Positions 4,637-43,421 are shown, counted from the stretch's first letter. The stretch: 54,676 bases of DNA from Candidatus Woesearchaeota archaeon (GCA_964440825.1 CAYYKU010000001.1:1-54676), one strand, 5' to 3'. Translations and numbers: made by a program. The notes: generated from the sequence alone by a model not told the origin.

Positions 4637-5242
4637 TTATGAGTTTACTCTCATTTTTTTACTTGATTTAACTCTCACTTTTTCCTTTTTGAGTATAATT
4701 TGCTTCATTTCTTCAGGAATATACACTCTTTTCTTCCCATTTGCCTCTTTTGACTCTTCAATTAACCCCTCACACTTTTGTTTTATCATATTTATCTGTC
4801 CTCTAATTGTGCTTTTGTCTTTTCCAAGAACGATCGCTAGGTCTTCATAGCTTAATTTACTATTATCTGCATTTACTAGTGCCCATACAATTCCCCTCTC
4901 CATAAGGGTTAAATTGTCTAAAATACTTGTTTGAACAGCCGTTTGAACAGTACTTTGAACATCAGAAACACTCGTTTGTTTTATCCCTAATGGTTGTTGT
5001 TGTTTAGAAATCTTAGTTCCAAACAGAGAAATAAAATCTTTTACATCATCAATTTCATTTTGTAATATAAATATTTGTTGTTTTAATTCAGAAATCTCTT
5101 CATTTTGTTGCTTATCATTACCGTCGAAATGGCTTATCCATTGGCCTACTTTGTTAAAATCTTCTTTAACTGCATCAAAAGATTTCTGAACTTCTTCTTT
5201 TTTTATTGTACTTTCATCTCTTTTTTTAAAAAATCCAAACAT
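4637..5242 (-). CDS. coiled-coil plus C-terminal wHTH DNA-binding protein (same architecture as 3711..4379)
   Basis: The track ORF runs to 5293, but I prefer the ATG at 5242 (MFGFFKKRDE...) because a TATA-like box and the palindrome lie just upstream. Coiled coil EISELKQQIFILQNEIDDVKDF, a Q/S/T linker, and HTH LTLMERGIVWALV...YEDLAIVLGKDKSTIRGQINMIKQK. Confidence 0.5.
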   Translation of the reverse strand: MFGFFKKRDESTIKKEEVQKSFDAVKEDFNKVGQWISHFDGNDKQQNEEISELKQQIFILQNEIDDVKDFISLFGTKISKQQQPLGIKQTSVSDVQSTVQTAVQTSILDNLTLMERGIVWALVNADNSKLSYEDLAIVLGKDKSTIRGQINMIKQKCEGLIEESKEANGKKRVYIPEEMKQIILKKEKVRVKSSKKMRVNS

Positions 5243-6162: not shown

Positions 6163-6328
6163 ATACATACAAAATTTTTATTTATTTTTTATTTTTTATA
6201 CAAACAAACAGTCAAACAGTCGTTTTAACACATGTTTAGACTATTAAACAGGCCTTGATTTACCGTATATAAACGGTGTTTAAACAGCTGTTTTTTCTAT
6301 TTCAAGTAGTTTTATATAGTTCTTTTTC

Positions 6329-6338
6329 TGTTTAAACA
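6329..6338. promoter_or_regulatory. TGTTTAAACA palindrome (putative operator) in the promoter of the RHH gene
   Basis: TATA-like TTTTATATAG at 6311-6320, palindrome at 6329-6338, SD GGAGGT at 6355-6360, ATG at 6368. Confidence 0.45.
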
Positions 6339-6367
6339 GGTAAATCCTGAAAAGGGAGGTAAAAATT

Positions 6368-6529
6368 ATGGCAGCAACACCACCAGATGCACAAAAAAGA
6401 AAAATAGACTGGAACATAGACCGAAAAGTTTACGATGAATTTATGAAGTCGTGTAGCAACAAAGGCTACGCTCCTCAAGTCGTTGTAGAAAAAATGATGG
6501 CTAAGTTCAATCAAACAAAACAGTTTTAA
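6368..6529 (+). CDS. ribbon-helix-helix (CopG/Arc-like) small DNA-binding protein
   Basis: 53-aa ORF, below the track cutoff: MAATPPDAQKRKIDWNIDRKVYDEFMKSCSNKGYAPQVVVEKMMAKFNQTKQF. Strong SD (GGAGGT) 7 nt upstream. The pattern of a basic beta-strand (KIDWNID) followed by two helices fits RHH. Confidence 0.55.
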   Translation: MAATPPDAQKRKIDWNIDRKVYDEFMKSCSNKGYAPQVVVEKMMAKFNQTKQF

Positions 6530-6608
6530 TTCTATTTTAATTCTTTATTTTTTGTTTTTAATTATTTCCTTATATCTTTGCACTATGTTTACCTTTGGCC
6601 GCGAGTTA

Positions 6609-6708
6609 TTTGGAAGGCTTTTCATAAAGCAGACCTTAGTGCACAAAACCGCCGAAACTAAAAAGTTAGTTAAGCTGACGAATCAAAAAAGCCCCTTAGC
6701 ACGCAAAT
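6609..6708 (+). repeat. cassette leader repeat, copy 1 (long form)
   Basis: TTTGGAAGGCTTTTCATAAAGCAG + ACCTTAGTGCACAAAACCGCCGAAACTAAAAAGTTAGTTAAGCTGACGAATC + CCTTAGCACGCAAAT. Lies upstream of A1. Confidence 0.8.
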
Positions 6709-6738
6709 ATTTTTAAATAGATTTTAATTAATTAGTAT

Positions 6739-7263
6739 ATGTCACAACCAATTCCTCTTATGTTTGCAGCACCCTTTCCTCTTGCTCTATTTACTGGTGA
6801 AAAAAATAAGACTTTTAGAGTAGCAGGTAAATTTCAATTAGACTTGGGCACATGTGTTTCATTACAATTAGTTGAATCGCGTTTTGGTTTAGCAACTCCT
6901 GAATTTGCAAGAGCAGAAGTTAGTGGAGTAACTCGCAAAAGGTTTTATGATTTTACTAAACAAGATTGGGAAGGACATGAAACTTTTGAATCAGATTATG
7001 AAAGAGACCTGGTTTATTCTGACTGGAATGGTTTTCCGGTCGGTGCCGCAACATTAATGGATATCATTTCATACTCAAAATTTGAAATAACCGATCAAAG
7101 ATTAGTCGAGGAATTTTTAGAAGAATCAGCTCTTAAACAAAGCCAACCTAAGTGCACAGATGATGGCACGCAGTTTCCTTTTCCACACAAAGATCCTAAC
7201 TCGCCAAATTATAATCCTTATAAACTCGGCGGAGATAATCCTAGTCCACATATGAGATGTTAA
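6739..7263 (+). CDS. cassette protein A1: ASCH/PUA-like head plus conserved Pro/Asn-rich C-terminal tail
   Basis: 174 aa. The head resembles ASCH domains by eye (PLALFTGEKNKTFRV...LGTCVSLQL...ARAEVSGVTRKRFYDFTKQDWEGHE). The tail QSQPKCTDDGTQFPFPHKDPNSPNYNPYKLGGDNPSP is shared with A2. Confidence 0.6.
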   Translation: MSQPIPLMFAAPFPLALFTGEKNKTFRVAGKFQLDLGTCVSLQLVESRFGLATPEFARAEVSGVTRKRFYDFTKQDWEGHETFESDYERDLVYSDWNGFPVGAATLMDIISYSKFEITDQRLVEEFLEESALKQSQPKCTDDGTQFPFPHKDPNSPNYNPYKLGGDNPSPHMRC

Positions 7264-7264
7264 A

Positions 7265-7633
7265 ATGACTTCTCAAACACCTCAAAGCTATTTTTGTGAA
7301 TGGTTAGGTTATAAAATTTCAGGAGTTGCAGCAAGAAATTGTAATTATTGTAATCTTGAAACTTATATGTGCAGTCATTCAGGTGAACCTTGTGTTGCAA
7401 AAGAAGGTTTGGAGCAGTTTGCACAATCACTATCAAGTGGGTTTAATCAAGAAAGATTCCAACAACTAGACTTTTTAGAACAGTTGTTTAAACAACAGGA
7501 GGGCCTTGTTCAAGAACAAAGTAAACCTAAACTAACTACTAGTTATTTTTTACAAGAGGCAGCTAAACTGGAAACTGTAAAACGTAAAAAAATATACAAA
7601 GAAATTGCAGATATGGCAAAACACTTAAAATAA
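7265..7633 (+). CDS. cassette protein B1: small 5-Cys (C-x15-C-x2-C-x6-C-x6-C) protein
   Basis: 122 aa. Starts 1 nt after the A1 stop. Core AARNCNYCNLETYMCSHSGEPCV and basic C-terminal helix KRKKIYKEIADMAKHLK are shared with B2. Confidence 0.6.
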   Translation: MTSQTPQSYFCEWLGYKISGVAARNCNYCNLETYMCSHSGEPCVAKEGLEQFAQSLSSGFNQERFQQLDFLEQLFKQQEGLVQEQSKPKLTTSYFLQEAAKLETVKRKKIYKEIADMAKHLK

Positions 7634-7675
7634 TTTTTAAAAATAGACTTTACTTATTCTCCAGATACTAAGATC

Positions 7676-7754
7676 ACCTTAGTGCATAAAACCGCCGAAA
7701 CTAAAAAATAGATTAAGCTGTCGAGTCTCCAAATAACTCTTTCAGCATACAAAA
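7676..7754 (+). repeat. cassette leader repeat, copy 2
   Basis: ACCTTAGTGCATAAAACCGCCGAAACTAAAAAATAGATTAAGCTGTCGAGTC...CTTTCAGCATACAAAA. Lies upstream of A2. Confidence 0.8.
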
Positions 7755-7784
7755 ACTTAAAAACAAATTAACTATAAGTTTTAA

Positions 7785-8255
7785 ATGAAAGACGCAGAAG
7801 GTAAAGAAATTATATCTAACAAGTTATATAGAAATTTTGGAGCAACTACCTTGGACTTCAATTCTGCATATTCTAAGATTTACTTCGTAAAACAATTATC
7901 TTCAGGTCTTGTAGTTGCAAAAGATGAAAAAGGAGTATCTCGAAGAGTTTGGTCTCATGAGGAAATTTCAGAGATGTATGAAAAAGAACTAGACGTATGT
8001 ATGAAGAAAGTAAGGGCTAGTGAGCTCTATCTATGCAATAATATTGACATTTTAATTATGCAAGAAAACCTAGAAAGATCACGAAAGAGAACTCCTGGAT
8101 TAATTTCTTTATTAAATAACTCTGCCCAAAGCCAACCTAAGTGCACAATACCTAAAGAAATGCAATTTCCTTTCCCGCACGAAGATTCTAACTCGCCAGG
8201 GTATAATCCTTTCAAAAGAGGCGGAGATAATCCGAATCCTCTTAAAAAATATTAA
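7785..8255 (+). CDS. cassette protein A2: unrelated head plus the same conserved tail
   Basis: 156 aa. The head has no similarity to A1 that I can see. The tail AQSQPKCTIPKEMQFPFPHEDSNSPGYNPFKRGGDNPNP matches A1. Confidence 0.6.
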   Translation: MKDAEGKEIISNKLYRNFGATTLDFNSAYSKIYFVKQLSSGLVVAKDEKGVSRRVWSHEEISEMYEKELDVCMKKVRASELYLCNNIDILIMQENLERSRKRTPGLISLLNNSAQSQPKCTIPKEMQFPFPHEDSNSPGYNPFKRGGDNPNPLKKY

Positions 8256-8259
8256 AACG

Positions 8260-8550
8260 ATGACTCCTACAACATCTCAAAAATTTATATATTGCCCATA
8301 CACAGGTATAAGGCTCTCCGCAGTTGCCGCAAGAAATTGTAATTATTGTAATCTTGAAACTTATATGTGTAGTCATTCAGGCGAGTTCTGTGTTGTAAAA
8401 GAAGGTTTAGAGGAGTTTGCACAATCTCTTACAGAAAATCTACCAGTTAAAGCACTAGAAGTCTTTCAAAAAATAAGAGAAGATCTAGAGCTAGAAAAAC
8501 GTAAAAAAATTTACAAAGAAATTGCTAAAATGGCAGATCATCTAAAATAA
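8260..8550 (+). CDS. cassette protein B2: small 5-Cys protein (paralog of B1)
   Basis: 96 aa. AARNCNYCNLETYMCSHSGEFCV and KRKKIYKEIAKMADHLK. About 90% nucleotide identity to B1 across the Cys core, by eye. Confidence 0.6.
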   Translation: MTPTTSQKFIYCPYTGIRLSAVAARNCNYCNLETYMCSHSGEFCVVKEGLEEFAQSLTENLPVKALEVFQKIREDLELEKRKKIYKEIAKMADHLK

Positions 8551-8573
8551 TTCCTAAATTATTTACTTTGCTT

Positions 8574-8625
8574 ACCTTAGTGCATAAAACCGCCGAAACC
8601 AAAAGACAGGTTAAGCGGTCGAGTC
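8574..8625 (+). repeat. cassette leader repeat, copy 3 (no intact cassette follows)
   Basis: ACCTTAGTGCATAAAACCGCCGAAACCAAAAGACAGGTTAAGCGGTCGAGTC. Confidence 0.8.
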
Positions 8626-8892
8626 CAAAAACTGTTGAGAGATCTTATTTTATTTTCAAAAATCTCAAAAAACAGCAAAAAATCTGTCAAAAACACCTTA
8701 AATTCCCTTTATGGTTCGTACAAGATACATTGTAGTGACTCAGAAAATCTCTCAAAATCAGTGTTTTTTGTTCAATTTCACAAAACCATATATAAATCTT
8801 TAGCCAAAAATAAAAACGCTCCCTAAACGTCCAGATTCAAAAAATTTAATTTATGTATGATGTTCACTTTTAAACGGAGCAAAGTGAGGTTT

Positions 8893-8933
8893 TTTGGAAG
8901 GCTTTTAATAAAGCCGACCTTAGTGCATAAACC
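8893..8933 (+). repeat. cassette leader repeat, copy 4 (long-form 5' part, truncated core)
   Basis: TTTGGAAGGCTTTTAATAAAGCCG + ACCTTAGTGCATAAACC. A TGTTTAAACA palindrome follows at 8942-8951. Confidence 0.7.
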
Positions 8934-9033
8934 CCTATAGCTGTTTAAACAACCTTCTAAAAAAGAGATAGCATATTTTCACAAAACTAAGTAATTAATA
9001 AAAATTATTAACTAAGGTTAGCAAAGTTATTCT

Positions 9034-9237: not shown

Positions 9238-9318
9238 TTCAAATTAAACTTTTTATTGTTTTTATTGTTATCTAATTTCTTCCAAAATCTATTTAAACCG
9301 TGGTTCGTACAATCTAGT

Positions 9319-9822
9319 ATGAAAAAAAAAGTTGTTGTAAATGATTTGATGCAAAAAAATTATTTTTATTTTTTAACTGAGCCAACCGGTAAAAATTTTG
9401 ATCCAGAGTTCAAACCAGAGTTAACACCCAAACAGATGTTGGAGCTAGGTGTTTTTAGCGGAAAGTACATGACGGACTGCAAAAAAGAGTTTCCTTCGTC
9501 TTGGTTCGCACAATCCAAACTTTCACCACTTTATCCGCAAGATGCTCTAAATTTCTTCAAAGTTCATGCATCTCAGCCACTCTCTGTTTGGCAAGAAAAA
9601 GGATGGATATATCACGAGGATCCTCGTGGTTGGTTTCAGTGGTACTGTCGTTACTTTATGGGTCGAAGATGTCCGGATGATCAAAGACAAATCAAACGTT
9701 GGAAAGCAATCAAGCGACACATTTCTCAACTAAACAAACATTGTAAAAAGGGAGATTTTTCTTGTCGCCCAGTTCAACGACAAGCGATTCTTCATTGGGC
9801 TTATGATTCTAGAAAACTATAA
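9319..9822 (+). CDS. conserved hypothetical protein
   Basis: I prefer the ATG at 9319 (MKKKVVVNDL...) over the track start at 9256. Distinctive block EDPRGWFQWYCRYFMGRRCPDDQRQIKRWKAIKRH; I cannot name the family with confidence. Its stop overlaps the GNAT start. Confidence 0.5.
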   Translation: MKKKVVVNDLMQKNYFYFLTEPTGKNFDPEFKPELTPKQMLELGVFSGKYMTDCKKEFPSSWFAQSKLSPLYPQDALNFFKVHASQPLSVWQEKGWIYHEDPRGWFQWYCRYFMGRRCPDDQRQIKRWKAIKRHISQLNKHCKKGDFSCRPVQRQAILHWAYDSRKL

Positions 9823-10286
9823 TGGTAAAGCAATTTTTTAGAAAAGCTAAACTTTCTGACGCTCGGGAACTTTCCGAAATTAGGAGAAGCGTTTTTGGTA
9901 ATATTCCTGGAGAAAATTATAATAAGAAATTAATTGAGGTTTTAACCCAAGACTATTCTCCTGAGAATATCAAGAAAAAAATTAAAAAATATCTGACTTT
10001 TTGCTTGGTTAGTGGCCATGAGATAATTGGTTCCGTTTCTTTACAAGGTTCAGAAGTAAAAGGAGTATTTGTAAAATTTACTTATACTCGAAAGGGGATT
10101 GGCACTAAACTAATGAATTTTATTGAAGAATATGCAAGGAAAAAAGGGTTAAAAAAAGTTCATCTTTGGTCTGCAGAAAAGGCGAAAGGATTTTATAAAA
10201 ATTTAGGATATAAACTTATAAAAAAAGTTTCAAAGCCGTATAAAGGCATAAGAAATGTAAACTTTGTTATGGAGAAAAAATTATGA
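9822..10286 (+). CDS. GNAT family N-acetyltransferase
   Basis: 154 aa. Acetyl-CoA motif A RKGIGTKLMNFIEEYARKKG and a C-terminal FYKNLGY. Confidence 0.8.
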   Translation: MVKQFFRKAKLSDARELSEIRRSVFGNIPGENYNKKLIEVLTQDYSPENIKKKIKKYLTFCLVSGHEIIGSVSLQGSEVKGVFVKFTYTRKGIGTKLMNFIEEYARKKGLKKVHLWSAEKAKGFYKNLGYKLIKKVSKPYKGIRNVNFVMEKKL

Positions 10287-11116
10287 ACACCGAAGAATTT
10301 CTAAAAAAACTTGAAATAGAACTTAAAATTTCTAAAAATTCTCAATATACTATCCGAAATTATTTAGATGCAAATAAACAACTGTTTGAACAATTAAACA
10401 AACAGCCGGAAGAAATAGAAGTCGACGATGTTAAACAGTTCATGGCAGAAAAATTAACTGAAAAATCTTCTTCATCTATTATTTTATTTTTAGCAGCAAT
10501 AAAATATGCATACACTAATATTTTAAAAAAAGATGTTACTTTAGGAATCAAACGGCCTAAAAAAGAAAAAAGAATCCCAACAGTAATGACTAAGGAAGAA
10601 GTTAAACGACTAATAAACAGCATTTACAGCGATAAAAGCCGTTTAATGGTCTCGATGCTATATGCTTGTGGTTTTCGTATATCGGAATTAATTAACTTAA
10701 ACATCGCCGATCTGAATTTTCTAGAAAAAACAGGTATGGTTAAACAAGCAAAAGGAAAAAAAGACAGAGTGTTTAATATTCCTGAATTTTTAGTTGCGGA
10801 CTTAAACAAACAAATTGAGTTTCAAAAAAAATTAAATCACGAATTATTATTCTCAAACGAAGAAACTGGTAAAAAACTTTCAGCTTCAAATATTGAAAAA
10901 ATCGTTAGAAAAGCCGTCAAACGGGCAGGAATTCAAAAAGATATACATTGTCATACGCTTAGACATTCTTTTGCAACACATTTATTAGAGAACGGAGTAG
11001 ACTTGAGAACTATTCAAACGCTTTTAGGTCATTCATCCATTTCAACTACAGAATTATACACTCATATAAGTAACCAGCAGATAAAAAATGTTAAAAGTCC
11101 TATAGATAGTTTATAA
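10283..11116 (+). CDS. xerA: tyrosine recombinase, XerA/XerC/XerD type
   Basis: 277 aa. N-terminal SAM-like core-binding domain. Catalytic region GFRISELINL...HTLRHSFATHLLENGVDLRTIQTLLGHSSISTTELYTH (R..HxxR..H..Y). ATGA overlap with the GNAT gene. Confidence 0.85.
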   Translation: MNTEEFLKKLEIELKISKNSQYTIRNYLDANKQLFEQLNKQPEEIEVDDVKQFMAEKLTEKSSSSIILFLAAIKYAYTNILKKDVTLGIKRPKKEKRIPTVMTKEEVKRLINSIYSDKSRLMVSMLYACGFRISELINLNIADLNFLEKTGMVKQAKGKKDRVFNIPEFLVADLNKQIEFQKKLNHELLFSNEETGKKLSASNIEKIVRKAVKRAGIQKDIHCHTLRHSFATHLLENGVDLRTIQTLLGHSSISTTELYTHISNQQIKNVKSPIDSL

Positions 11117-13102: not shown

Positions 13103-13642
13103 ATGGCTTGTGAAAAATGTGGTTATCATGACAAAAAAGAAGGGGAAAAGTTAAATTCAAAATTATGTAGGCTTTGTTTGATGTTTGCTCCAGAAAACGA
13201 GTCAGATTTTCAAAATTATCTTTCTGAGAAAATAGATTGGAAACTTTTAGAAACTTTTAGAAAATATGGGCAATCTACTGGATCTCGTCAGAAAAAAGGA
13301 ATGGATGAAAAAGCAAAGCAAGGAAAAATAATGACGCGGGTTGCTCTTGGTTATTCTTTAGTCAATGAATCTCTTATCCCTAATGAATTTGCATCAAAAG
13401 TTCATTCTATATTTAGGACTTTCTTGAATCAGAATTATTCTTTAAACAATATGGCTAAACATTATAGTCTTTCTGTAAATGGTTTAAAGAAAGTTTTAAA
13501 GAACAGAACTTATTTGGGTGAAGTAAAGTTTGCAGGAAATTTGTACAAATCAAATCATTCTGCAATTATTAATCCTGAAATATTTTATGCAGTTCAAAGA
13601 AAGTTGGTTGAAATAAGTAAAAAACGAAAAATAGTCAATTAG
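13103..13642 (+). CDS. zinc-ribbon protein with a serine-recombinase 'recombinase' (PF07508-like) domain and no resolvase catalytic domain
   Basis: 179 aa. N-terminal CxxC...CxxC (CEKCGYHDKKEGEKLNSKLCRLC). Then GKIMTRVALGYSL..SLIPNEFASKVHSIFRTFLNQNYSLNNMAKHYSLSVNGLKKVLKNRTYLGEVKF, the pattern found downstream of the catalytic domain in large serine recombinases. Confidence 0.5.
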   Translation: MACEKCGYHDKKEGEKLNSKLCRLCLMFAPENESDFQNYLSEKIDWKLLETFRKYGQSTGSRQKKGMDEKAKQGKIMTRVALGYSLVNESLIPNEFASKVHSIFRTFLNQNYSLNNMAKHYSLSVNGLKKVLKNRTYLGEVKFAGNLYKSNHSAIINPEIFYAVQRKLVEISKKRKIVN

Positions 13643-14412
13643 TCTTCTGATTCTAAACAAATTCTTTTGATAGTCTCTAGATATGTTTTTTCGCCATTTA
13701 TTGTCCAATCTTTTATTGCTTCTACCAAGTAGGTTTGGTTTACTCCCATATAATTTCCGAGCCTCTTAATATCGTATAAGTCGTGTTCCATTCTTAAGTG
13801 AATGATATCTAGTTCGGTTCTATCCAGGGAAGAAACCAATCTTTCTTTTTCTTCTTCTATATGTTCTTTAAGTTCGGGGATTGTTCTTATTTGGGGAAAC
13901 TCCAGTGACGATTGGTTTGAAAATTTAAAAATTCTGGCCAATTTTCTGACTATTAAGTCTTCAGGACTTAAAACAGAATATTCTAAATTGCCTTTAATAA
14001 TATTCCTTCTATTGGCAAATTCTCTCTCTATAGAATGTCTGTTTTTTCCTAAAGAAGGTTGGGATCTTCGCTGGTGTTGTATCATAAATCTTTGTCCATC
14101 TAAAGAGTAATTTATATCAAGAGTAGAATTTTCTTTTTTCCTTCCAACATCATATCCTTTCTCTTGTAATCTTGTAATCAGTGGTTTAACTTTACTCCAG
14201 AATTCTACGGTATTTCCTCCCCACAGCATATTAAAATCTAGATCAATAGTGTATCTATTAGTTCCTTCTGGTAAATATGATGATACAGCCATCCCGCCAG
14301 AGATTAAAATAGGTGTTCCGTCTTTTTGCTCTATTCTATTTATTGCTTCAATACCATCTAGAACTATTTGATCTTCCAAAACATGACTATCTAATAAAAA
14401 ATTTTTACCCAT
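13639..14412 (-). CDS. AbiEii/DUF1814-like nucleotidyltransferase
   Basis: 257 aa. ILISGGMAVSSYLPEGTNRYTIDLDFNM matches the hGG(S/T)...R.T.D.DF NTase signature of PF08843. Confidence 0.6.
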   Translation of the reverse strand: MGKNFLLDSHVLEDQIVLDGIEAINRIEQKDGTPILISGGMAVSSYLPEGTNRYTIDLDFNMLWGGNTVEFWSKVKPLITRLQEKGYDVGRKKENSTLDINYSLDGQRFMIQHQRRSQPSLGKNRHSIEREFANRRNIIKGNLEYSVLSPEDLIVRKLARIFKFSNQSSLEFPQIRTIPELKEHIEEEKERLVSSLDRTELDIIHLRMEHDLYDIKRLGNYMGVNQTYLVEAIKDWTINGEKTYLETIKRICLESED

Positions 14413-14435
14413 TCGAATATAGTTTTATAGGCATT

Positions 14436-15410
14436 TTATTCTATTTCTATTTTAATATGTTTAATTCCTGGATAATTTTTAACAATATTATCTAATGTTC
14501 TAAAAGGCATTTCACCAACCAGTTTTACATTTTTACCAAGTCTATCTATTTTAATTTGAAAAGGTAGTTGTCTCGCTCTGAAATAGTTTGTTAATTTATG
14601 CTTTAATCCGATGCCTGCCCCTGGATGTTCATAATCTGCTTTAATATTATATACTGTTATTCCTGCTAACTTATTTTCTGCACCTCTTAAAGCAGCTAGT
14701 TCCTTTCTTCCTAAAAAATCATAAAATTGAAGCTGAAACTTATCTGGATTTTGATAAGAATAAAGATCGTCTCTTGAATCTGCACTCCTATTTTTAAAGC
14801 CCTCTATTGCTCCAAAGAGATAATTTTTATAATCAGATGATTCTCTATCTGCAATGCTAATTGGTAAAAATCCTTCATTTCTGAGGATTGTATTCATATA
14901 AATTCCTGCAGTTCTTTTATTTCCATTACTAAATGATTGGATTCTCACTAGATGAAAATAATCAAAAATTGCTCTTTCAACAGGGTGCAACTTCATATTT
15001 TTTTCTGCTTCCATTGTTCTTTCTAAATGCGCTCTTATTCTAGTTTCATCTATAGGTGGGACATTTTCTCCTTTCATTTGAGCCATCTCTTTTCGAAAGT
15101 CTGCATAACTTTGTCTTGTGGCCCTTAAGGAAGGCTCGACTCTTCCAGAAATTTCAGTAAGTGTAATTAAATCTAAGTTTTTTACCTTCTGAGTTTGTCC
15201 ATAAAGCCAGGCTTCTCTAAAATTTGCAATTACTTCTTTTTGTCTTTCACAATTGTCTTTATCTTGAAAAGAAATATTTTTTATCGTTTGATCTTCTAAA
15301 TCTTTAAACATTCTCATAGTTGCATTCTCTATTTTAGATGAATCTAGCTTTCTCTTTGCACTATCAATTTCCTGAAGTAATTCTTTCTTTAAAATAGCCA
15401 TAAAAATCAT
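14436..15410 (-). CDS. Fic/DOC-fold protein with a degenerate active-site motif
   Basis: 324 aa. HPVERAIFDYFHLVRIQSFSNGNKRTAGIYMNTILRNEGFLP aligns with the Fic core, but HPFx(D/E)GNGRxxR reads QSFSNGNKRTAG (catalytic His to Gln, second Arg to Gly). Confidence 0.6.
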   Translation of the reverse strand: MIFMAILKKELLQEIDSAKRKLDSSKIENATMRMFKDLEDQTIKNISFQDKDNCERQKEVIANFREAWLYGQTQKVKNLDLITLTEISGRVEPSLRATRQSYADFRKEMAQMKGENVPPIDETRIRAHLERTMEAEKNMKLHPVERAIFDYFHLVRIQSFSNGNKRTAGIYMNTILRNEGFLPISIADRESSDYKNYLFGAIEGFKNRSADSRDDLYSYQNPDKFQLQFYDFLGRKELAALRGAENKLAGITVYNIKADYEHPGAGIGLKHKLTNYFRARQLPFQIKIDRLGKNVKLVGEMPFRTLDNIVKNYPGIKHIKIEIE

Positions 15411-20782: not shown

Positions 20783-20832
20783 ACAGAGGTGATCTCTTTG
20801 GGAAACCCAGGGGCGAGAGTAATAAATATAAC

Positions 20833-20915
20833 TGGGGAGAGGAGGACTCGAACCCCCGTAAGCGTAAGCTACAACGGCCTTAACGTTGCCCGTTTGACCA
20901 CTCCGGCATCTCCCC
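20833..20915 (-). tRNA. tRNA-Leu (type II, long variable arm); anticodon loop UUAAGGC, which reads as anticodon AAG
   Basis: The minus strand GGGGAGATGCCGGAGTGGTCAAACGGGCAACGTTAAGGCCGTTGTAGCTTACGCTTACGGGGGTTCGAGTCCTCCTCTCCCCA folds by hand into a cloverleaf. Acceptor GGGGAGA/TCTCCCC, anticodon stem CAACG/CGTTG, variable arm AGC-TTAC-GCT. No encoded CCA. Confidence 0.8.
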
Positions 20916-20996
20916 AGAATAAATATTAAAGCTAAACAAGACTATAAAAAACTATTGAAGTGAGACAAACAAACACTTGTTTAAAATATAAACAAA

Positions 20997-29882: not shown

Positions 29883-30026
29883 ATGCAAAAAAGAGTCACA
29901 CTTAGTCTAGATGATAAAGTTTACAAAGATTTTCAGAAGTTTTGCGAGGATAATGATATAATAGTTTCTAAAAGAATTGAAAGGTTAATGAGTGAAATGT
30001 TAGAGAAAAAGAAAAGCTTAAAATGA
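29883..30026 (+). CDS. ribbon-helix-helix (CopG-like) small protein
   Basis: 47-aa ORF, below the track cutoff: MQKRVTLSLDDKVYKDFQKFCEDNDIIVSKRIERLMSEMLEKKKSLK. The beta-strand RVTLSLDD plus two helices follow the same pattern as the 6368 ORF. Its stop overlaps the giant gene's ATG (ATGA). Confidence 0.55.
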   Translation: MQKRVTLSLDDKVYKDFQKFCEDNDIIVSKRIERLMSEMLEKKKSLK

Positions 30027-33000
30027 TAAAAAATAAAAAAATTAAAGAGGTGATGAAGGCGAAATTAATTTATTTAGTTGTATTTTTATTATTGGGGGCA
30101 TTGTCTTTATCTGCAAATGTTGATGCTTCTTTAGATGGGGATGGGTCTTCTTCTAACCCGTACCAAATCACAAATTGCACACATTTACAAGAAATGAAAA
30201 ATAATTTGACAGCGGATTATATTCTTATGAGTAATATTGACTGTTCAATTACTTCAACATGGAATAGTAATGCAGGATTTGAACCAGTAGGTAACACAAC
30301 AATGCCCTTCAGAGGAAGTTTAGATGGAAACGGATATAATATTACTAATATGGTGATTTATCGTCCTTCCGCGACATATTTGGGTTTATTCGGGGATCTT
30401 GACAACAACAGAAAGATAATTAAAAATTTAGGAATTCATAATGCGAATATTACTGCTAGTAATACTGCCGGTGTTTTGGCAGGTAGAATAACAAACAGCA
30501 CAATTGTGCGTGTTTCTGTTTCGGGAGTATTGAGATCACTAAATATTTTGGGCGGATTAACCGCCTCTATTGCTAACACAACAGTATACAACTCTTCTGC
30601 AACGTGTAATCTTACGACCACAGGTACTGGACAATACAATGTAAATGGTGGTTTTGTTGGATGGTTAGGTAGAAATGTATTGATAGAAAGTTGCTTTGCA
30701 GATAGTATTATAGTTAGTTCTGACGCTTCCAATGGTGGGTTTTATGCATGGACTAATGGATTAGAGGTTGCAGGACATAACACAACAGTTAATAATTCTT
30801 ATTCTAAAGGAGCTATTTCTGGCTCCGGTAGTTATACTGCTGGTTTTGGAGGTCCTTCGAATGGTAATTCTTACATCCGTGATTCTTATACAATTGAAAC
30901 TATGTCGGTGGGATATTGTGTTTTTGGAGCTGTATATGGTACTGTTCCTGCAACAAATTTATTTTATGATAGTACTGCTTGTACGAGGGGAACTGGTGGC
31001 GGAGGGACAGCCAAAACAACAACACAAATGAAAACCGAATCCACTTTTACTGCAGTAGGGTGGGATTTTACAAATAAATGGATAATTAATGCATCTAAAA
31101 ATAGCGGTTATCCTTATTTACTTTGGCAAGATACTCCTGTTCCTAATTCAATTAGGCCTCTTTTTGATATTGTATCTCCAACAAATAATTCAATTCAAAC
31201 AGATGCATTTAATTTAACTTTTAATGCAACAAATGCATCTGCATTGTGGTATTATAATGGGACAGAAAATATTAGTTATATGGGGGCAGTATCATTAAAT
31301 TTATCTCCGGCAAATTATAATTACATTTTATATATGAATTATTCTAATGGTACTATTGTTTCCGAAAATTTATTTTTCACAGTAGCATCAAATGTTGAGA
31401 TTTCATTTGCAAATCCTTTCGGAACTGGTGGAAATATAACTTATGAGGGTGAGTATACTATTCATACATTTTCATATACTGGTTCTGAGCAAAATTTTAT
31501 TATTGGGAGTAATATAAATGCGACTATTTATGTTTGGGGTGGCGGCGGTGCAGGTGGATCTCCCGGTGGGTGGGTCTATGGTGCTGCGGGTGGTGCAGGA
31601 GGTGCTGCAAATGGATCTATAACTTTAACAAAGGGAGTTACATATGATATTGTTGTTGGCGGCGGCGGAGTATTAAACAGTTTTGCTAGTGCATTTGGCG
31701 GTGGAGGAAAAGCATCTAATAATAATGCTGATAACAGATACGCCGGCGGCGGCGGCGGTTACTCTGGTTTATTTTTATCTTCTATTTCGCAAACCAATGC
31801 ATTGCTTATTGCGGGCGGTGGCGGTGGCGGCGCGGCAAGCAGAGCTGGAACAGGAAATGCAGGCGGTGCCGGGGGCGGAACATCTGGACAAGTAGGTTAT
31901 TCGCCTTACGATGGAAAAGCAGCATATGGTGGGAATCCTGGAAATCAAACATCTGCAGGTGCTGATGCTAGTTGCAGTAATGCAAATACTGCAGGAGGAC
32001 AAGGTGTACTTCAAGGAGGAACTGTTAGATTCAATAGTTATGGCGGCGGTGGCGGTGGCGGATATTGGGGTGGTTCTGCTGGAGGATATAGTGAAAGTAA
32101 TACTATGGGTGGCGGCGGTGGCGGTTCTGGATATTATAATTCTACTTATGTTTCTTCTGCAAATTTAGCTACTGGTGTGGGAACTACTCCTGGTGATTCT
32201 GCAAATGCATTTAGAGGAACAGCAGGTACTGCGGGTATTGTTTCGGGAAATGGTGCCGCTGGTGTTGTTATAATAAAATATTTAACACCAACATTAATTA
32301 CTGAAGAAAATAATTCTGTGTACGCTAGAGATTATATTTTTGCAAATTTTGATATTTCAGGTTCTAATTTTGTGAATGTGACTTATAATTTGTATAATTC
32401 TACTTCATTATTAGATTCAACAAGTTATTATTCAACTGAAAATAATTCAATAAATTGGACAAACCTTCCAAATGAGGTTTACTATTATAATGCTACTGCT
32501 TATGATCTTTTTAATACAACAATTACTTCCGAAACAAGGATGATTACGTTAGACACTACGGTACCAAATGGGACTTTAATTTCTCCAGCAAATAATACTT
32601 CTGTAGGAGCTACATCAATTAATTTCACAGCAAATATTTCAGATAATTTAGGTATACAGAATGCTACTTTAAGTATTGTAAATGCAACAGATAATGAAAC
32701 TATTTCAACTCATGTTTATGGAGATGATTCTTTACCAGCAGGGGTTGTAGAAGCAACTATTGGAATTGTAGTTTCTTTAACTGATGGAGTTTACAATTGG
32801 TTCTATTCAATCTTTGACTGGGCTGGAAATCAATTCAATACAGAAACTAATCAAGTTACTGTTGATTTACCACCAGTCGTAACCTTAACTTCTCCTGCTG
32901 CAGGAATTTCTTTAACACAATTTGATAGTTTAACTTGTAGCGTAGCTGATATGTTTGGTGTTGAGAATATCACTTTGTATTTATGGAATGAAACTGGATT

Positions 33001-36000
33001 AATTTATAATGATACACAAGAGGCAGGTGGAGCAACTTTATATGAAAATACTTGGAATTATGATTTAACTGATGGAGAATATAATTACAATTGTTTAGCA
33101 GTAGACTCAACTTTAGGTTCTGCTGCCTGGGCTGCAAGTAATGTTACAACTCAAGTAGATGCTTCAAATTATACAATTACAAACGGAAATTTTGTAGATT
33201 GGGGGAATTTTTATTATAGTCCTTCTTTTACAAGAAATTTTACTTTTAATGTTACTTCAACTTCAGTAATTGATCAAGATTTGACATTTGAATTATTTTC
33301 GCCTGGAAAAGATTTTTCTAGTAGTGCTTACATATATCACGCAGAGGGAAATTGCGGTGGAGACAGATGGGGGGCGAGCTGTGATACTTATGATTTGATT
33401 GATGGTAATTGGGATACTTACTACGGTATCTCTGGTTATTACAATAGTTATATTCAATATGATTTGGCTTCCCAAGGTTTAATAAATGAAATTAAAATAG
33501 CTTGGTATCCAGGAAATAACTGGTATAGTCCGGGGCCATATTATTTTCAATACTATGATAGCAACACTGGAGAGTGGCTTACTCCGGACGGATGGAAATC
33601 TTGGATAGGTGATGCTCCTTATTTAGAATCAGGTACTTTTGGAGGTTCTAGTTGGGGTGCATCGACTGATGTTACCACCATGACAGATGGAGATCCATAT
33701 ACTTATTTCGGTATAAGTGGAAATAAAGGAGATGGAGTAGTGACTTACTCATTTGATAATCCAAGAACTATTTCTTCTGTAAATGTTATGTGGTATCGAT
33801 CTAGCCCTGGAGACTATTATTTTGAATATAAAGATGTTGATGGAAATTGGCAACAACCAACAGAATGGCAGTCTAATGATGGTAATCAGGATACTGAGAC
33901 TGATTATGCTTATAGTTTAGATACTCCTGTTGAGGCTCTGGGGTTAAGACTCTATAAACCTGCTCTTGGAGGGGGGAGTGGAACAGGTATATCCGAATTT
34001 ACTTTTGATTCTATTATTTCTCCATCTTACCTAATTAATCAAGATTTTTATACAGAATATACATTCACTTTATCAACACCAGTTACTACTTCCAATATAA
34101 GATTAGCTAAACCCTCTACTGGTTCTAATAGTGGTATAGGTATTTCAGAAATGACTGTTTCTGGAATGGACAAAATAACTACTTCTAATAACGGATATAT
34201 GTATTTAGTGGGTTCAGAATCTCCAACTTATACAATTGCAGCAAATGCTTTAACACAAATTAGTTTCCCATTAAGAATAAATGCAGGGTCTTTTAGTTAT
34301 AATTTATATGCAACTGCAACAAGAACAAGATTTGGAGAAACTTATGATTATTCTTCTCCAAGTTATTGGATAAATTTTATTCAAGACTTAACTCCTCCAG
34401 CCCTAGTTGGCAATATTAGTTACTCTCCAAATCAATTAGATAATATTGATCCAGAAACATTTATCCAAATGAATGCAACAATGACTGATGCTGGTATTGG
34501 ATTAGCTAATGCAACATTCCAATCCTTCTATAATGGTACTTGGCATAATTTAACAACTGAATTAATCGGAGCATACACAAAGGGTGGAAAATTTGGAGCT
34601 AACTTTACAACTGCTTCTGTAGATAAAAACTATACAATAAGATTATGGTCTATAGATTCAGTAGGAAATGCAGGCTATACTGCAAATACTACAATAAAAT
34701 CTGAATGGGATTGTACATGGAATATTGCTCCTTCTTCTTTCGAAGAAACAATAGGGTTCTATGAAGATAAGCCACTTGGAAATATTACTTTAATTAATAC
34801 AGGAGATGTTAATTATTCAAATAATAACTGTTCTATAGAATTTACACTAGGTTGGTCTGGATTTAGTACAGAATACCTTATTGCAACTTCTGATCCTGAA
34901 AGATGGTTAACTGGAAATACTTATTTCCAATTCCCATTAATAAATAGAAAGATAAGAGTCTCTGCAAAAACAAACCAAACAGTACTTGTGAATGTTTCTT
35001 TCCCATCAACAGAATCTCCATTCACTGAGACTCCTTTAGTACTTGTAAGTTCTTCAATAAATGATTCAATAACTCGTTCTAAAGTAAAGAATGTTAGCAC
35101 TGAAATAATTATTTCCCCTCCAAATCCTTTGCTATATCAAGCGATTACAGAATCTCCAACTAGCTATGTTTCTTTAACTCCCGGAAATATATCTCTAAAT
35201 GCCTTTGTAAGAAATCTAGGTTATGATCCTGATAATGCAGAAAATACTACTGCCTATAATGTAACTTTTAACTGGACATTACCTTCAGCATTATATGAGA
35301 GGTTAATAATAGAAGAGAATGTAACAAATGAAACATTATTCTTTGATGTATTAAATACTTCAGAAAGACAATTTAACAATTTAACAATTGCTTTAACAGA
35401 TGCAAACTTAGGATCTATGTCTAAAGGAATATTAAATCTAACTATCTTCTCATATGGGTATTCAAATGCTTCAGATAATTCTTCATTAATTGTTAATTCA
35501 GGAAATAAAACTCTATTGAATGAAACAGTTTCAATTGAATTCAAATGTTATGAAGTCGCAGATAATATCTGTGTCTCCGCTTGTGGTATTGGTGTAGATC
35601 CAGATTGTGTTGCTTCACCTCCTGGTTCTAATGGTGGTGGAGGCGGCGGAGGTGGTGGCGGAGGTAGTGGAAGCTTCGATAAGTCATCTGCTACGTTTGA
35701 ATTAGTCAGGGGCGATAATCAAGAATTTAGTTTAGCATTAGAGAATAAACTATCTAATCCTAAGAAAGATATAACTATCACAATTAAAGGAAATAATTCA
35801 CAGTATGTTATTCCTTCACCTAATTTGATAACTTATTTGGGAGCAAATAGTAATAAAACTATAAAGTTCTTAATTAATGCACCTTCATATTTCTCTTCAG
35901 GTAAATACTTACTAGAGATTACATTTAGTGGAACTATTGAAGGAAATACTTCAACTAAATTCACAGAAGTAAGATATGTAACATTAATGATTTTAGAAAT

Positions 36001-36925
36001 GAAGAGAACTACTGCAGATGAATACTTGAATAATTCATTAGAATTCCTTTCTAAAATGAATGAATCAGGATTGATATTAGATGAAGTACAATCAATATTA
36101 AATTCAATGAATTCAAATTATGAGAGTTTGAATTTCAATTTATTAAAAGAAGAAGCTGCTAAGATTGCAGAGATATATACTGCTGCTACAGAGTATTCAA
36201 AATTGAGGGATGAATTAAATCAGTCAATGATTGAATCGGAGAAAAATGGAATTGAAGTTTCAGAAACAAAGAAGTTATTCCTACTAGCTGAAATATTATT
36301 TAATAGGGGAGATTATGTTGCAGCTTATGCTAAAATGAAAGAAGCTAAGACTAGTTATTTACTTGAAACTAAAGGAGAATTTAAAATATTATATGCAATT
36401 AAGAATAATCCTATTGAGACATTAGGAATCTTGATTTCTTTAAGTGCAATAGGATTAGGTTCTGGTTACTTCATAAGATTAAGATTACTAAAGAGAAAAT
36501 TAAGAATGTTAACTGAAGAAGAAGGATTATTGTTGCAATTAATGAGAGTAGTTCAAAGAGACTGCTTTGAGAACAATAAGATGTCTATGGAAGAGTATGG
36601 TGAAGCCATGTATCAATACGAAGCTAGATTAGGCATAGTGATACAAGATAAAGTTACAACAGAAACTCAGATTGCGAACTTAATGAAGCTAGGTGGTAAG
36701 AAGAAAGCCCTAGGACAGGAAAGAGATAGATTAACTATTTTAATTAGACAAACCCAAGATGATTATATGAATAGGGGAAGATTAGATACTAGAATTTATG
36801 AAAATATGTTGAAAACATACGCTACTAGATTGAGTAAGATTGAAGAACAATTAGTATTTATAGAAGTCCAGGAGCAAATTAATCAGGTTAGTGGTTTCTG
36901 GCAGAGATGGTTTGGTAAAAATTAA
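30023..36925 (+). CDS. giant (2300 aa) multidomain surface protein with a C-terminal TM segment and a cytoplasmic coiled-coil tail
   Basis: N-terminal signal/TM (LIYLVVFLLLGALSLSANVDA). GLUG-like repeats (LGLFG.., AGVLAGRITNS). Gly-rich domain (IYVWGGGGAGGSPGG...VVGGGG..., nt ~31530-32285). Ig/CARDB-like modules rich in N-x-S/T sequons. Discoidin/F5-8-type-C-like repeats (DLIDGNWDTYYGISG / MTDGDPYTYFGISG, nt ~33340-34170). A G11 tract. TM segment (LGILISLSAIGLGSGYFI, nt ~36412-36480). A ~148-aa charged helical tail. Confidence 0.85.
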   Translation: MIKNKKIKEVMKAKLIYLVVFLLLGALSLSANVDASLDGDGSSSNPYQITNCTHLQEMKNNLTADYILMSNIDCSITSTWNSNAGFEPVGNTTMPFRGSLDGNGYNITNMVIYRPSATYLGLFGDLDNNRKIIKNLGIHNANITASNTAGVLAGRITNSTIVRVSVSGVLRSLNILGGLTASIANTTVYNSSATCNLTTTGTGQYNVNGGFVGWLGRNVLIESCFADSIIVSSDASNGGFYAWTNGLEVAGHNTTVNNSYSKGAISGSGSYTAGFGGPSNGNSYIRDSYTIETMSVGYCVFGAVYGTVPATNLFYDSTACTRGTGGGGTAKTTTQMKTESTFTAVGWDFTNKWIINASKNSGYPYLLWQDTPVPNSIRPLFDIVSPTNNSIQTDAFNLTFNATNASALWYYNGTENISYMGAVSLNLSPANYNYILYMNYSNGTIVSENLFFTVASNVEISFANPFGTGGNITYEGEYTIHTFSYTGSEQNFIIGSNINATIYVWGGGGAGGSPGGWVYGAAGGAGGAANGSITLTKGVTYDIVVGGGGVLNSFASAFGGGGKASNNNADNRYAGGGGGYSGLFLSSISQTNALLIAGGGGGGAASRAGTGNAGGAGGGTSGQVGYSPYDGKAAYGGNPGNQTSAGADASCSNANTAGGQGVLQGGTVRFNSYGGGGGGGYWGGSAGGYSESNTMGGGGGGSGYYNSTYVSSANLATGVGTTPGDSANAFRGTAGTAGIVSGNGAAGVVIIKYLTPTLITEENNSVYARDYIFANFDISGSNFVNVTYNLYNSTSLLDSTSYYSTENNSINWTNLPNEVYYYNATAYDLFNTTITSETRMITLDTTVPNGTLISPANNTSVGATSINFTANISDNLGIQNATLSIVNATDNETISTHVYGDDSLPAGVVEATIGIVVSLTDGVYNWFYSIFDWAGNQFNTETNQVTVDLPPVVTLTSPAAGISLTQFDSLTCSVADMFGVENITLYLWNETGLIYNDTQEAGGATLYENTWNYDLTDGEYNYNCLAVDSTLGSAAWAASNVTTQVDASNYTITNGNFVDWGNFYYSPSFTRNFTFNVTSTSVIDQDLTFELFSPGKDFSSSAYIYHAEGNCGGDRWGASCDTYDLIDGNWDTYYGISGYYNSYIQYDLASQGLINEIKIAWYPGNNWYSPGPYYFQYYDSNTGEWLTPDGWKSWIGDAPYLESGTFGGSSWGASTDVTTMTDGDPYTYFGISGNKGDGVVTYSFDNPRTISSVNVMWYRSSPGDYYFEYKDVDGNWQQPTEWQSNDGNQDTETDYAYSLDTPVEALGLRLYKPALGGGSGTGISEFTFDSIISPSYLINQDFYTEYTFTLSTPVTTSNIRLAKPSTGSNSGIGISEMTVSGMDKITTSNNGYMYLVGSESPTYTIAANALTQISFPLRINAGSFSYNLYATATRTRFGETYDYSSPSYWINFIQDLTPPALVGNISYSPNQLDNIDPETFIQMNATMTDAGIGLANATFQSFYNGTWHNLTTELIGAYTKGGKFGANFTTASVDKNYTIRLWSIDSVGNAGYTANTTIKSEWDCTWNIAPSSFEETIGFYEDKPLGNITLINTGDVNYSNNNCSIEFTLGWSGFSTEYLIATSDPERWLTGNTYFQFPLINRKIRVSAKTNQTVLVNVSFPSTESPFTETPLVLVSSSINDSITRSKVKNVSTEIIISPPNPLLYQAITESPTSYVSLTPGNISLNAFVRNLGYDPDNAENTTAYNVTFNWTLPSALYERLIIEENVTNETLFFDVLNTSERQFNNLTIALTDANLGSMSKGILNLTIFSYGYSNASDNSSLIVNSGNKTLLNETVSIEFKCYEVADNICVSACGIGVDPDCVASPPGSNGGGGGGGGGGGSGSFDKSSATFELVRGDNQEFSLALENKLSNPKKDITITIKGNNSQYVIPSPNLITYLGANSNKTIKFLINAPSYFSSGKYLLEITFSGTIEGNTSTKFTEVRYVTLMILEMKRTTADEYLNNSLEFLSKMNESGLILDEVQSILNSMNSNYESLNFNLLKEEAAKIAEIYTAATEYSKLRDELNQSMIESEKNGIEVSETKKLFLLAEILFNRGDYVAAYAKMKEAKTSYLLETKGEFKILYAIKNNPIETLGILISLSAIGLGSGYFIRLRLLKRKLRMLTEEEGLLLQLMRVVQRDCFENNKMSMEEYGEAMYQYEARLGIVIQDKVTTETQIANLMKLGGKKKALGQERDRLTILIRQTQDDYMNRGRLDTRIYENMLKTYATRLSKIEEQLVFIEVQEQINQVSGFWQRWFGKN

Positions 36926-43322: not shown

Positions 43323-43421
43323 GCGCTGTTAGTATAATGGTAGTATAGTTGGTTTCCATCAAACGTCTTTGGGCAATTGCGAAAAAACCAATTGGCTCGG
43401 GTCCGATTCCCGAACGGCGCA
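43323..43421 (+). tRNA. tRNA-Trp (anticodon CCA) with a ~26-nt intron at or next to the canonical 37/38 site
   Basis: 99 nt. Acceptor GCGCTGT/ACGGCGC (one G-U), anticodon stem TTGGT...ACCAA separated by TTCCA + ~26 nt + A(A). Removing 26 nt gives a 73-nt body. The D-arm and T-loop (TCCGATT) are atypical. Confidence 0.6.

Follow-up and report, generated by a model that had tools for sequence, protein, structure and literature searches.

How do neighboring archaeal genes come to encode proteins with unrelated N-terminal bodies and one and the same C-terminal tail? The question is raised by a gene array (positions 6580-8931) in a 54.7-kb stretch of DNA from a Candidatus Woesearchaeota archaeon (54,676 nt; the window, by which we mean the whole stretch analyzed). 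The sequence-only reading of this DNA had described two adjacent cassettes, each with a gene A, encoding a variable head and a constant tail, and a small Cys-rich partner gene B behind a repeated leader. We found that the locus, which occupies a fixed chromosomal slot, is an array of modular orphan genes that is restricted to one lineage and is being reshuffled rapidly. Its anatomy, its variation in the population, a constraint on the DNA itself, hybrid sites and recent transfer were all observed. The reading that we favor, at slightly better than even odds (about 0.55), is that recombinase-mediated exchange at a dyad-symmetric DNA word, supplemented by homologous recombination, shuffles protein modules in the array.

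Two cassettes with unrelated heads and a common tail

All four open reading frames (ORFs) were found on the + strand as described: A1 (6739-7263), B1 (7265-7633), A2 (7785-8255) and B2 (8260-8550), with B1 starting 1 nt past the A1 stop. Homology is evident between the ~40-aa tails of the two A genes (BLASTP E 2e-17; 71% identity) and between B1 and B2 (E 3e-35); no relationship was detectable between the heads (BLASTP E 0.15; profile-profile probability 0.5% between the head families). The measured DNA identities were 88% in the B core (113 nt) and 75% in the tail plus the B start (110 nt), close to what had been estimated by eye. An independent contig from another sample, L020 (related contigs are designated by L numbers), carries the same array; it is therefore not an assembly artefact.

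The A1 gene consists of a head module of 132 aa (6739-7134), an in-frame junction site (7135-7158; …KQSQPKCT) that matches GCACAAAGCCAACCTAAGTGCACA at 22 of 24 positions, and a Pro/Asn-rich tail, FPFPHxDPNSPxYNPxKxGGDNPxP (7159-7263), with free synonymous drift and a ratio of nonsynonymous to synonymous divergence (dN/dS) of 0.15-0.49. In A2, an unrelated head module of 113 aa (7785-8123), 96% identical to a head in L001, is followed by a junction site (8124-8147; SAQSQPKCT; 23/24) and by a tail module homologous to that of A1 (8148-8255). B1 is composed of a Cys core (residues 11-57), a 27-aa insert and a C-terminal helix module, KRKKIYKEIADMAKHLK, and B2 of the core and the helix module. The shared Cys core was correctly recognized before; its first spacing, given as C-x15, is actually C-x10-AARNC. 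Likewise, B is a small Cys-rich partner, and four of the five Cys residues ascribed to it (C11, C26, C36 and C43) are invariant family-wide, the second Cys of the CxxC being variable.

The junction word is constrained as DNA

A near-copy of the palindromic site that marks the cassette borders, GCACAAAGCCAACCTAAGTGCACA, encodes AQSQPKCT and lies in frame exactly at the head/tail boundary; the boundary sequence gCACAAAGCCAACCTAAGTGCACA (AQSQPKCT) is a close variant of the intergenic site. In ten distinct junction copies, which follow at least five unrelated heads, the codons are frozen: CCT was found in 9/10 and AAG, TGC and ACA each in 10/10. For comparison, invariant Pro columns of the tail use 2-4 codons, and Lys elsewhere is encoded by AAA in 16/18 cases. 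A Fisher calculation on the junction and tail codon counts gave about 5e-6, the copies not being independent of each other.

In relatives, the junction peptide is also found ahead of the B core, immediately behind the …FAQS end of that core, and ahead of other C-terminal modules. In sister lineages, the same DNA word is used in a second reading frame (DNLSAQKK, GQLSAQKK and GDLSAKEK), with a shared MVKKE… start before it and unrelated bodies after it, namely a GNAT protein, a 155-aa protein of unknown kind and a 70-aa ORF. The word is also present in noncoding spacers. Since its conservation extends to two reading frames and to spacers, we conclude that the constraint acts on the DNA.

The region upstream of the MVKKE… gene is itself nearly identical in three serine-recombinase lineages (L005 6414-6533, L023 3338-3457 and L032 5369-5488). 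This promoter region contains the palindrome TAAGGGAACCCTTA and, just before the ATG, the site-like ACCCTTAGTATACA.

A dyad-symmetric site opens each cassette

Each cassette starts with a unit of ~63 nt located upstream of the cassette's own promoter. The unit opens with a dyad-symmetric site of ~21-24 bp, (T)GCACWWWG-N5-CWWWGTGCA, with arms of ~8-9 bp, a spacer of 5 nt (or 7 nt) and a poorly conserved left arm. The core noticed earlier is the right arm of this imperfect palindrome; the repeat copies were thus placed correctly, and the repeat extends ~10 nt further to the left as the second arm. To the right of the site follow AAAACCGCCG, a 4-bp inverted repeat with some compensatory change, and AAGCTGTCGARYC.

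We catalogued 42 distinct copies of the site from about 20 related contigs. In 20 distinct copies, 75% of the cells were complementary in register, compared to 29-54% when the arms were slid against each other. No covariation between the arms was detected in these 20 copies, because the right arm is invariant. Dyad symmetry without covariation is as expected for the signature of a protein-binding site, and would not be that of a hairpin.

The site is confined to the array. The core ACCTTAGTGCAYAAA occurs exactly four times in the 54.7 kb, all within 6633-8931, and the four repeat copies reported before have it at 6633, 7676, 8574 and 8917. Two versions with 2 mismatches lie in A1 (7146) and A2 (8135), where they fall exactly on the homology boundary. 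A scan with 24-nt references gave 7 matches of >=18/24 in 6580-8929 (2.4 kb) and zero in the other 52 kb.

The repeat copies form a mosaic, in which copies 1 and 4 share an upstream part ("U") and copies 1-3 a downstream part. Copy 1 (6622-6684, +) consists of the site (6622-6645) and a right part, AAAACCGCCGAAAC-small inverted repeat-AAGCTGACGAATC; copy 2 (7665-7727, +) has the palindrome tACTAAG-ATCAC-CTTAGTgca and a right part; copy 3 lies at 8563-8625 (+). The first U segment (6605-6632, +), an 89% direct repeat with 8889-8934, is a decayed left arm of the junction type: its sequence TTTGGAAGGCTTTTCATAAAGCAG matches GGAAGGCTTTCGCAAAGCCGACCT before the in-frame junction of a long B in L023, and ggctttcGCACAAAGCC in L028. 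The upstream part of copy 4 has the same origin. Further to the left, 6580-6596 (+; 18/24 to the repeat reference) contains the chromosomal left arm of the ancestral first site, GCACTATGTTTACCTT, which is parted from its right arm by an insertion of ~36 nt; in L001 and L002, the same arm directly abuts the core.

Copies 3 and 4, which are not followed by intact cassettes, had been taken for decayed or empty slots. For copy 3 this did not hold: together with the adjoining segment "seg e" (8626-8888, +; 84% mean identity over 130 nt in six lineages), it heads a noncoding unit of ~340 nt that is conserved in six relatives, and seg e closes the array in most relatives. Comparison of the lineages revealed neither a conserved ORF nor an RNA structure in seg e, and its interpretation as an RNA was rejected. 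Copy 4 is the terminal half-site of the array, a second U relic plus a core without a right part (8889-8931, +).

A degenerate inverted copy of the site (9004-9027, -; 17/24) is located at the right edge of the array. It lies just beyond the 3' end of a conserved minus-strand gene for a 67-aa Cys-rich protein, and a similar sequence is present in L001 at about 6766-6800.

A TATA-like box of the TTTAAAAA type is found at a fixed position ~25 nt ahead of each head ATG (6710-6719 for A1 and, by alignment of the conserved box, 7756-7764 for A2, both +), and it is kept even before unrelated heads. Its position points to a promoter and to leaderless mRNAs. Since leaderless mRNAs are implied, the repeated "leader" would lie upstream of the promoter and not be transcribed, which argues against its suggested role as a 5' untranslated region or a separate RNA. 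Furthermore, folding of the repeat as RNA or single-stranded DNA was not better than that of shuffled sequence, RNAalifold gave no consensus structure, and Rfam had no match. With only the weak 4-bp inverted repeat showing some compensatory change, the repeat was rejected as a structured RNA or an attC site.

Two other short motifs were noted in and around the array. Palindromes centered on GTTTAAAC recur at 6268-6292, 6329-6344, 7479-7496 and 8938-8956 in the window, and at 4690-4710 and 4940-4990 in L005; possibly they constitute a motif of their own in this genome, with a regulatory or recognition function. The 12-mer TGGTTCGTACAA is present in the terminal unit (8712-8723) and at about 9301-9312, shortly before the point at which the next conserved gene probably begins, and both copies are conserved in relatives.

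Array content differs between close relatives

All carriers, about 20, were Candidatus Woesearchaeota metagenome-assembled genomes (MAGs) or matching metagenome contigs. A repeat scan retrieved four Woesearchaeota-type MAGs and two chance matches (L029 and L030), and a scan of the GTDB representative genomes for B gave no match. The backbone order is conserved: Lhr helicase, winged helix-turn-helix (wHTH) genes, two small membrane ORFs, the array, a 167-aa ORF, a GNAT gene, a recombinase gene and a PmbA/TldD-like gene. By contrast, genomes with 84-91% DNA identity in their flanking genes have wholly different arrays. Among the occupants of this one slot are at least six unrelated heads, genes that consist of a head alone, fusions without a tail, and an HNH cassette.

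The window has A1-B1, A2-B2 and the terminal unit. L001 has a single cassette, in which the A2 head is combined with an A1-like tail and a B1-like B with a B2-like 3' end. An A1-type head is present in L004, a third head type in L009, L019 and L026, another in L018 and L028, and a further head with tail, plus a 134-aa B, in L035. L017 has two further head types, one of which has a different module after QSQPKCT; this module is also found after the B core in P0032. In L011, there is an extra head-only gene ending in QSQP*. L025 carries a head ending in …QSQPKCTKK*, a fusion of the A1 head to the C-terminal helix module of B, and a fusion of the B core via EQSQPKC to a new module. The HNH-type cassette is found in L003, L021, L026 and L033, the last having two tandem B-type genes before it. 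B follows the tail gene in every locus with downstream DNA present, and the second gene of L017, with its different module after the junction, departs from this rule.

A 53-aa ORF in the conserved left flank (6368-6529, +), which is not a cassette, has dN/dS of 0.04-0.07 and a synonymous divergence (dS) of 0.47-2.1 relative to its relatives. It lies directly upstream of the first repeat in L001, L011, L013, L014, L017, L019, L026, L027 and L028. By eye its product is ribbon-helix-helix-like, without Pfam support, and the ORF is lacking in the serine-recombinase lineages.

Modules were exchanged after the hosts diverged

Module reassortment in nature is documented by L001, L025, L011, L017 and L028. 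The homology boundary inside gene A, from which module exchange had been proposed, thus reflects such exchange and not duplication with divergence, with L001, L025 and L011 as natural recombinants. Between the window and L001, the A2 head has 96% identity and a dS of 0.12, and the flanking genes have dS of 0.68-0.88. Because the dS of the head is far below that of the flanks, we conclude that cassettes moved between lineages after host divergence. The identity of the two sequences breaks exactly after …CCTAAGTGCAC, the end of the junction, and collapses directly after 8146.

Furthermore, hybrid sites, in which a left arm of the junction type with its coding context is joined to the right part of a repeat, were detected at L011:1450, L028:6797, L005:5594 and L009:116. 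The sites at 6622 and 8906 in the window are hybrids too. The partners share only the core of 11-13 nt. Sites of the reciprocal type, with a repeat-type left arm joined to a non-repeat right side, are found at array ends.

Recombinase genes lie beside the array

A candidate catalyst, a XerA-type tyrosine recombinase of 277 aa (10283-11116, +; NF040815 227.9 bits, cutoff 220), is encoded 1.35 kb downstream of the array in the window and in every lineage close to it. The start of its gene is overlapped by the stop of the GNAT acetyltransferase gene (9822-10286, +), the L023 orthologue of which has an N-terminal extension carrying the site in the second frame. In four independent contexts (L005/6/7, L012, L023 and L032), a serine enzyme of ~260 aa with Resolvase and Recombinase domains is encoded 0.1-0.7 kb from B. 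Its gene spans 6743-7519 in L005, 4019-4801 in L023 and 5953-6738 in L032. A site-like word stands at or just before the start codon of the serine recombinase in L005, L023 and L012.

In L023 and L032, the XerA slot is occupied by the serine recombinase with an HNH/Recombinase-domain partner. The L023 gene follows the orthologous GNAT gene; the L032 gene has an overlap with the stop of the gene before it and is followed by the PmbA/TldD-like gene. Such replacement in situ suggests a functional link between the slot and the array. The L005 enzyme has 258 aa and scored 140 bits with CcrB (cutoff 900). For the sister-lineage enzymes, the best NCBIfam matches were CcrB/CcrC, and Pfam gave the Resolvase and Recombinase domains only; judged by their length, they presumably lack the zinc-ribbon/coiled-coil C terminus of large serine recombinases. 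A terminal site after the serine recombinase pair was not found in L005 and L023.

ORFs with only a Recombinase domain, which are noncatalytic, are conserved a few kilobases downstream of the array in all lineages (window 13103-13642; L005 7506-8051 and 11526-12062; L001 11040-11579). Some of them have an N-terminal zinc ribbon or HNH domain.

Recombination at the word and its alternatives

The observed changes in array content could be explained by recombination at the site, which would excise, insert and re-join segments. Deletions, circles and re-insertions would be the expected products, because all copies but one degenerate are in direct orientation. Promoter-plus-head modules would be set in front of tail-plus-B modules, and modules would be lost or exchanged between strains. 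We infer a dedicated recombinase from these sequence comparisons, and the catalyst would most likely be a site-specific enzyme encoded beside the array: the ~260-aa serine recombinase in L005, L012, L023 and L032. In the lineage of the window, the XerA-type enzyme may have this role. A more far-reaching proposal is that a dedicated recombinase acting on the ~24-bp site, both between genes and, in more than one frame, at the boundaries of protein modules, assembles whole proteins combinatorially from mobile sub-gene cassettes; this we regard as tentative, with rather less than an even chance. In this proposal, the cassettes would be promoter-plus-head, tail-plus-B and C-terminal modules passed from strain to strain, and the enzyme would be of the serine or the tyrosine type according to lineage.

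Several observations weigh against exchange by a site-specific enzyme. The tyrosine recombinase of the window is typed as housekeeping XerA (NF040815 XerA_Arch), and a catalytic serine recombinase was not found in the window, where only the Recombinase-domain ORF at 13103-13642 is present. The left edge of the young segment shared by the window and L001 is near the repeat end, not at the palindrome, and the second L001 breakpoint lies inside B, where there is no site; both therefore point to homologous recombination. In the hybrids, a polymorphic T/A base of the core goes with the junction side in L028 but with the repeat side in L011. Since it segregates either way, there is no single fixed crossover point. 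In addition, the inter-arm spacer varies between sites, which classical tyrosine recombinases tolerate poorly, and neither an excised circle nor polymorphism within a sample was directly observed. Conservation of gene order is weak evidence for functional linkage, because all carriers are fairly close relatives.

The two L001 breakpoints would be accommodated if no dedicated recombinase were involved, and the repeat and the junction word were homology anchors for RadA-dependent recombination or gene conversion among cassettes and with incoming DNA. Orphan toxin modules are swapped at conserved junctions in this way in polymorphic-toxin loci. One breakpoint is in a highly similar stretch of B, and the young segment begins, on its left, within the conserved repeat/promoter region; furthermore, the low dS of the B1/B2 cores (0.47) is consistent with gene conversion, and the conserved flanking genes would permit replacement of the whole array after DNA uptake. 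Nevertheless, homologous recombination on its own, the main rival to our reading, seems less likely than not. The 11-13 nt shared by junction and repeat are very short, yet hybrids arose repeatedly; no dyad symmetry would be needed, but the word has it; two reading frames and the spacers all preserve the word; and the genes next to the array encode recombinases and have a site-like word where they start. Homologous recombination within conserved stretches clearly has a share in the exchange, and our preferred reading, exchange at the word by a recombinase, includes it as a supplement.

Dyad symmetry without covariation, directly upstream of a conserved TATA-like box, would also suit an operator or promoter palindrome. 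A regulator, for instance the product of the small conserved 53-aa ORF or of a wHTH gene beside the array, would bind the repeat, which would have been copied by tandem duplication, and the likeness inside genes would be coincidental or reflect intragenic binding. This is improbable, as it leaves unexplained the hybrid sites, the head-only genes terminated by the word, the freezing of junction codons, the second-frame word before unrelated bodies, the terminal half-sites and the cassettes that are younger than the backbone; moreover, the heads are not duplicates of each other. Even less credible is that the site is the chromosomal dif of XerA and that the cassettes are tandem integrative elements exploiting Xer, similar to integrative mobile elements exploiting Xer (IMEX). 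IMEX elements do form tandem arrays of such kind, the cassettes here stand in tandem between directly repeated sites and the array ends in a half-site, and every lineage close to the window has the XerA-type gene 1.35 kb further on. However, the arms of ~8-9 bp with an odd spacer differ from the described arms of 11 bp, sister lineages hold a serine recombinase in the XerA slot, and in-frame sites within genes are not a known feature of dif. A GC-skew switch was not visible in the 54.7-kb window, which covers a part of the chromosome.

The encoded proteins are orphans

A1, A2, B1, B2 and five further head types had no match in sequence or profile searches of Pfam, PHROGs, NCBIfam, PADLOC and the Protein Data Bank (PDB). 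The A1 head was represented by only 3 clusters in 5.8e9 proteins, and an exhaustive profile search for the B family yielded only 32 clusters among 1.84 billion proteins. A search of 5.8e9 proteins with a tail profile gave nothing significant, the query being too short. B, the repeat and the junction were all lacking in a viral contig collection, and a viral origin was rejected on this ground. The ASCH/PUA-like fold suggested for the A1 head received no statistical support. There was no Pfam match to ASCH at E<=1 and no PDB profile match, and hhalign of the head against Escherichia coli YqfB, with an approximate YqfB sequence, gave a probability of 0.8%. AlphaFold2 models of B (predicted local distance difference test [pLDDT] 60; 10-sequence alignment) and A1 (pLDDT 38; 3 sequences) were too low in confidence for a fold search.

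Every array module is under purifying selection (dN/dS 0.15-0.49; A1 head 0.20-0.23), with values of 0.04-0.09 for the flanking genes, and the modules are therefore real genes. Because of the adjacent start and stop codons and the consistent co-occurrence, we would venture, as a weak guess, that the tail and B form a complex presenting interchangeable heads. The role of an adaptor or other partner that had been proposed for B would be compatible with the short distance between the A and B genes and with their joint occurrence. The proteins of the locus probably matter for interactions of these archaea with hosts or mobile elements.

The wider neighborhood

The next conserved gene to the right was annotated as a 188-aa ORF with a TTG start (9256-9822). 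An internal ATG (MKKKVVVNDLMQ…) is most likely its start, which gives 167 aa as in all relatives; the ORF is strongly conserved (dN/dS 0.05-0.09) and has no family match. On the minus strand, an AbiEii-type nucleotidyltransferase toxin is encoded beside a Fic/DOC protein (13639-15410), so the wider neighborhood is rich in accessory or conflict-type genes. Elsewhere in the window, Rfam detected a tRNA of 99 nt (43323-43421; probably intron-containing) that ARAGORN did not report, and a tRNA-Leu (20832-20916) was reported by ARAGORN alone. In a 2300-aa ORF (30023-36925), the first ~5 kb (about 30-35 kb) has a G+C content of 0.34-0.38, compared to ~0.31, and a positive GC skew.

Comparison with known systems

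Integrons, shufflons and staphylococcal cassette chromosome (SCC) elements are central to prokaryotic gain and variation of functions, and these known cassette systems move whole genes or flip alternative gene ends. In the present locus, the borders of cassettes and the in-frame joints of protein modules bear one and the same DNA word. Its carriers are DPANN archaea, which have reduced genomes and an accessory biology of which very little is known. No prior description of such a system was found in the searchable literature. If a recombinase does act on the word, the locus would be a natural system of protein shuffling at the level of domains, in effect a domain-level integron, and would offer a compact pair of site and ~260-aa serine recombinase. 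Even on a plainer reading, it is a fast-evolving, strain-variable locus of orphan proteins.

Tandem short cassettes in the same orientation, a repeated recombination-type element, a single chromosomal locus, a nearby tyrosine recombinase gene and rapid cassette turnover are shared with integrons and clusters of attC sites lacking integron-integrases (CALINs). Integrons, including those of archaea, have an IntI tyrosine recombinase in which an additional, IntI-specific domain lies close to patch III (Ghaly et al. 2022; PMC9668308). In contrast, the recombinase of the window reached 207.9 bits with TIGR02249, below the cutoff of 265, and the match is split where the IntI-specific domain belongs. 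The repeats do not fold as attC-like hairpins (R''-L''/L'-R'); single-stranded DNA folds of the 72-nt repeat units had z values of +0.5 to -1.15 and energies of -1.9 to -8.1 kcal/mol on both strands. Cassettes here carry their own promoters, and the site is also used in frame inside genes to join protein modules, which integrons are not known to do. An integron was rejected on IntI, attC folding and promoterless cassettes. The described dif is a 28-bp site with inverted arms of 11 bp and a 6-bp spacer, and is not next to xerA in Thermococcales (PMC2958812). The site described here, with arms of ~8-9 bp and a spacer of 5 nt (or 7 nt), does not have this 11+6+11 architecture.

Tandem, partly recombinase-less elements with short direct repeats at one conserved chromosomal site are also typical of SCC elements and their Ccr recombinases. 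The serine enzymes of the sister lineages differ in having ~260 aa and scores far below the cutoffs (140 vs 900 bits), and the cassettes differ in being ~1 kb long and in having sites in frame within genes. Polymorphic-toxin loci (CdiA-CT/CdiI and Rhs) have a C-terminal variable toxin and an immunity partner, and undergo displacement of orphan modules by recombination. With them, the array shares a short conserved junction between constant and variable parts and arrays of alternative modules with a small partner gene each. Unlike there, A varies at its N terminus, and the word at the junction is a palindrome that also serves outside coding frames. No toxin or immunity domain was detectable in any head, tail or B with Pfam, PADLOC, NCBIfam and PHROG.

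Shufflons (Rci/sfx of R64 pilV) and phage invertases (Gin, Cin and Min) use an in-gene site at the boundary of constant and variable parts, and swapping at this site yields alternative proteins. In phage Mu, the variable module Sv travels with the small partner gene U. The array resembles the former in its in-gene sites at such a boundary (7135-7158, 8124-8147 and the module boundaries of relatives) and Sv plus U in its tail with B. The sites of those systems are inverted and act by DNA inversion, whereas here all strong copies are on the + strand and one degenerate copy is inverted (9004-9027). Shufflons and invertases give rise to alternative C-terminal ends; in A, it is the N-terminal part that varies, and it comes with its own promoter. 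Moreover, modules are exchanged between strains and not only switched within a cell. In summary, we class the locus with the cassette/shufflon-type systems, as a new form.

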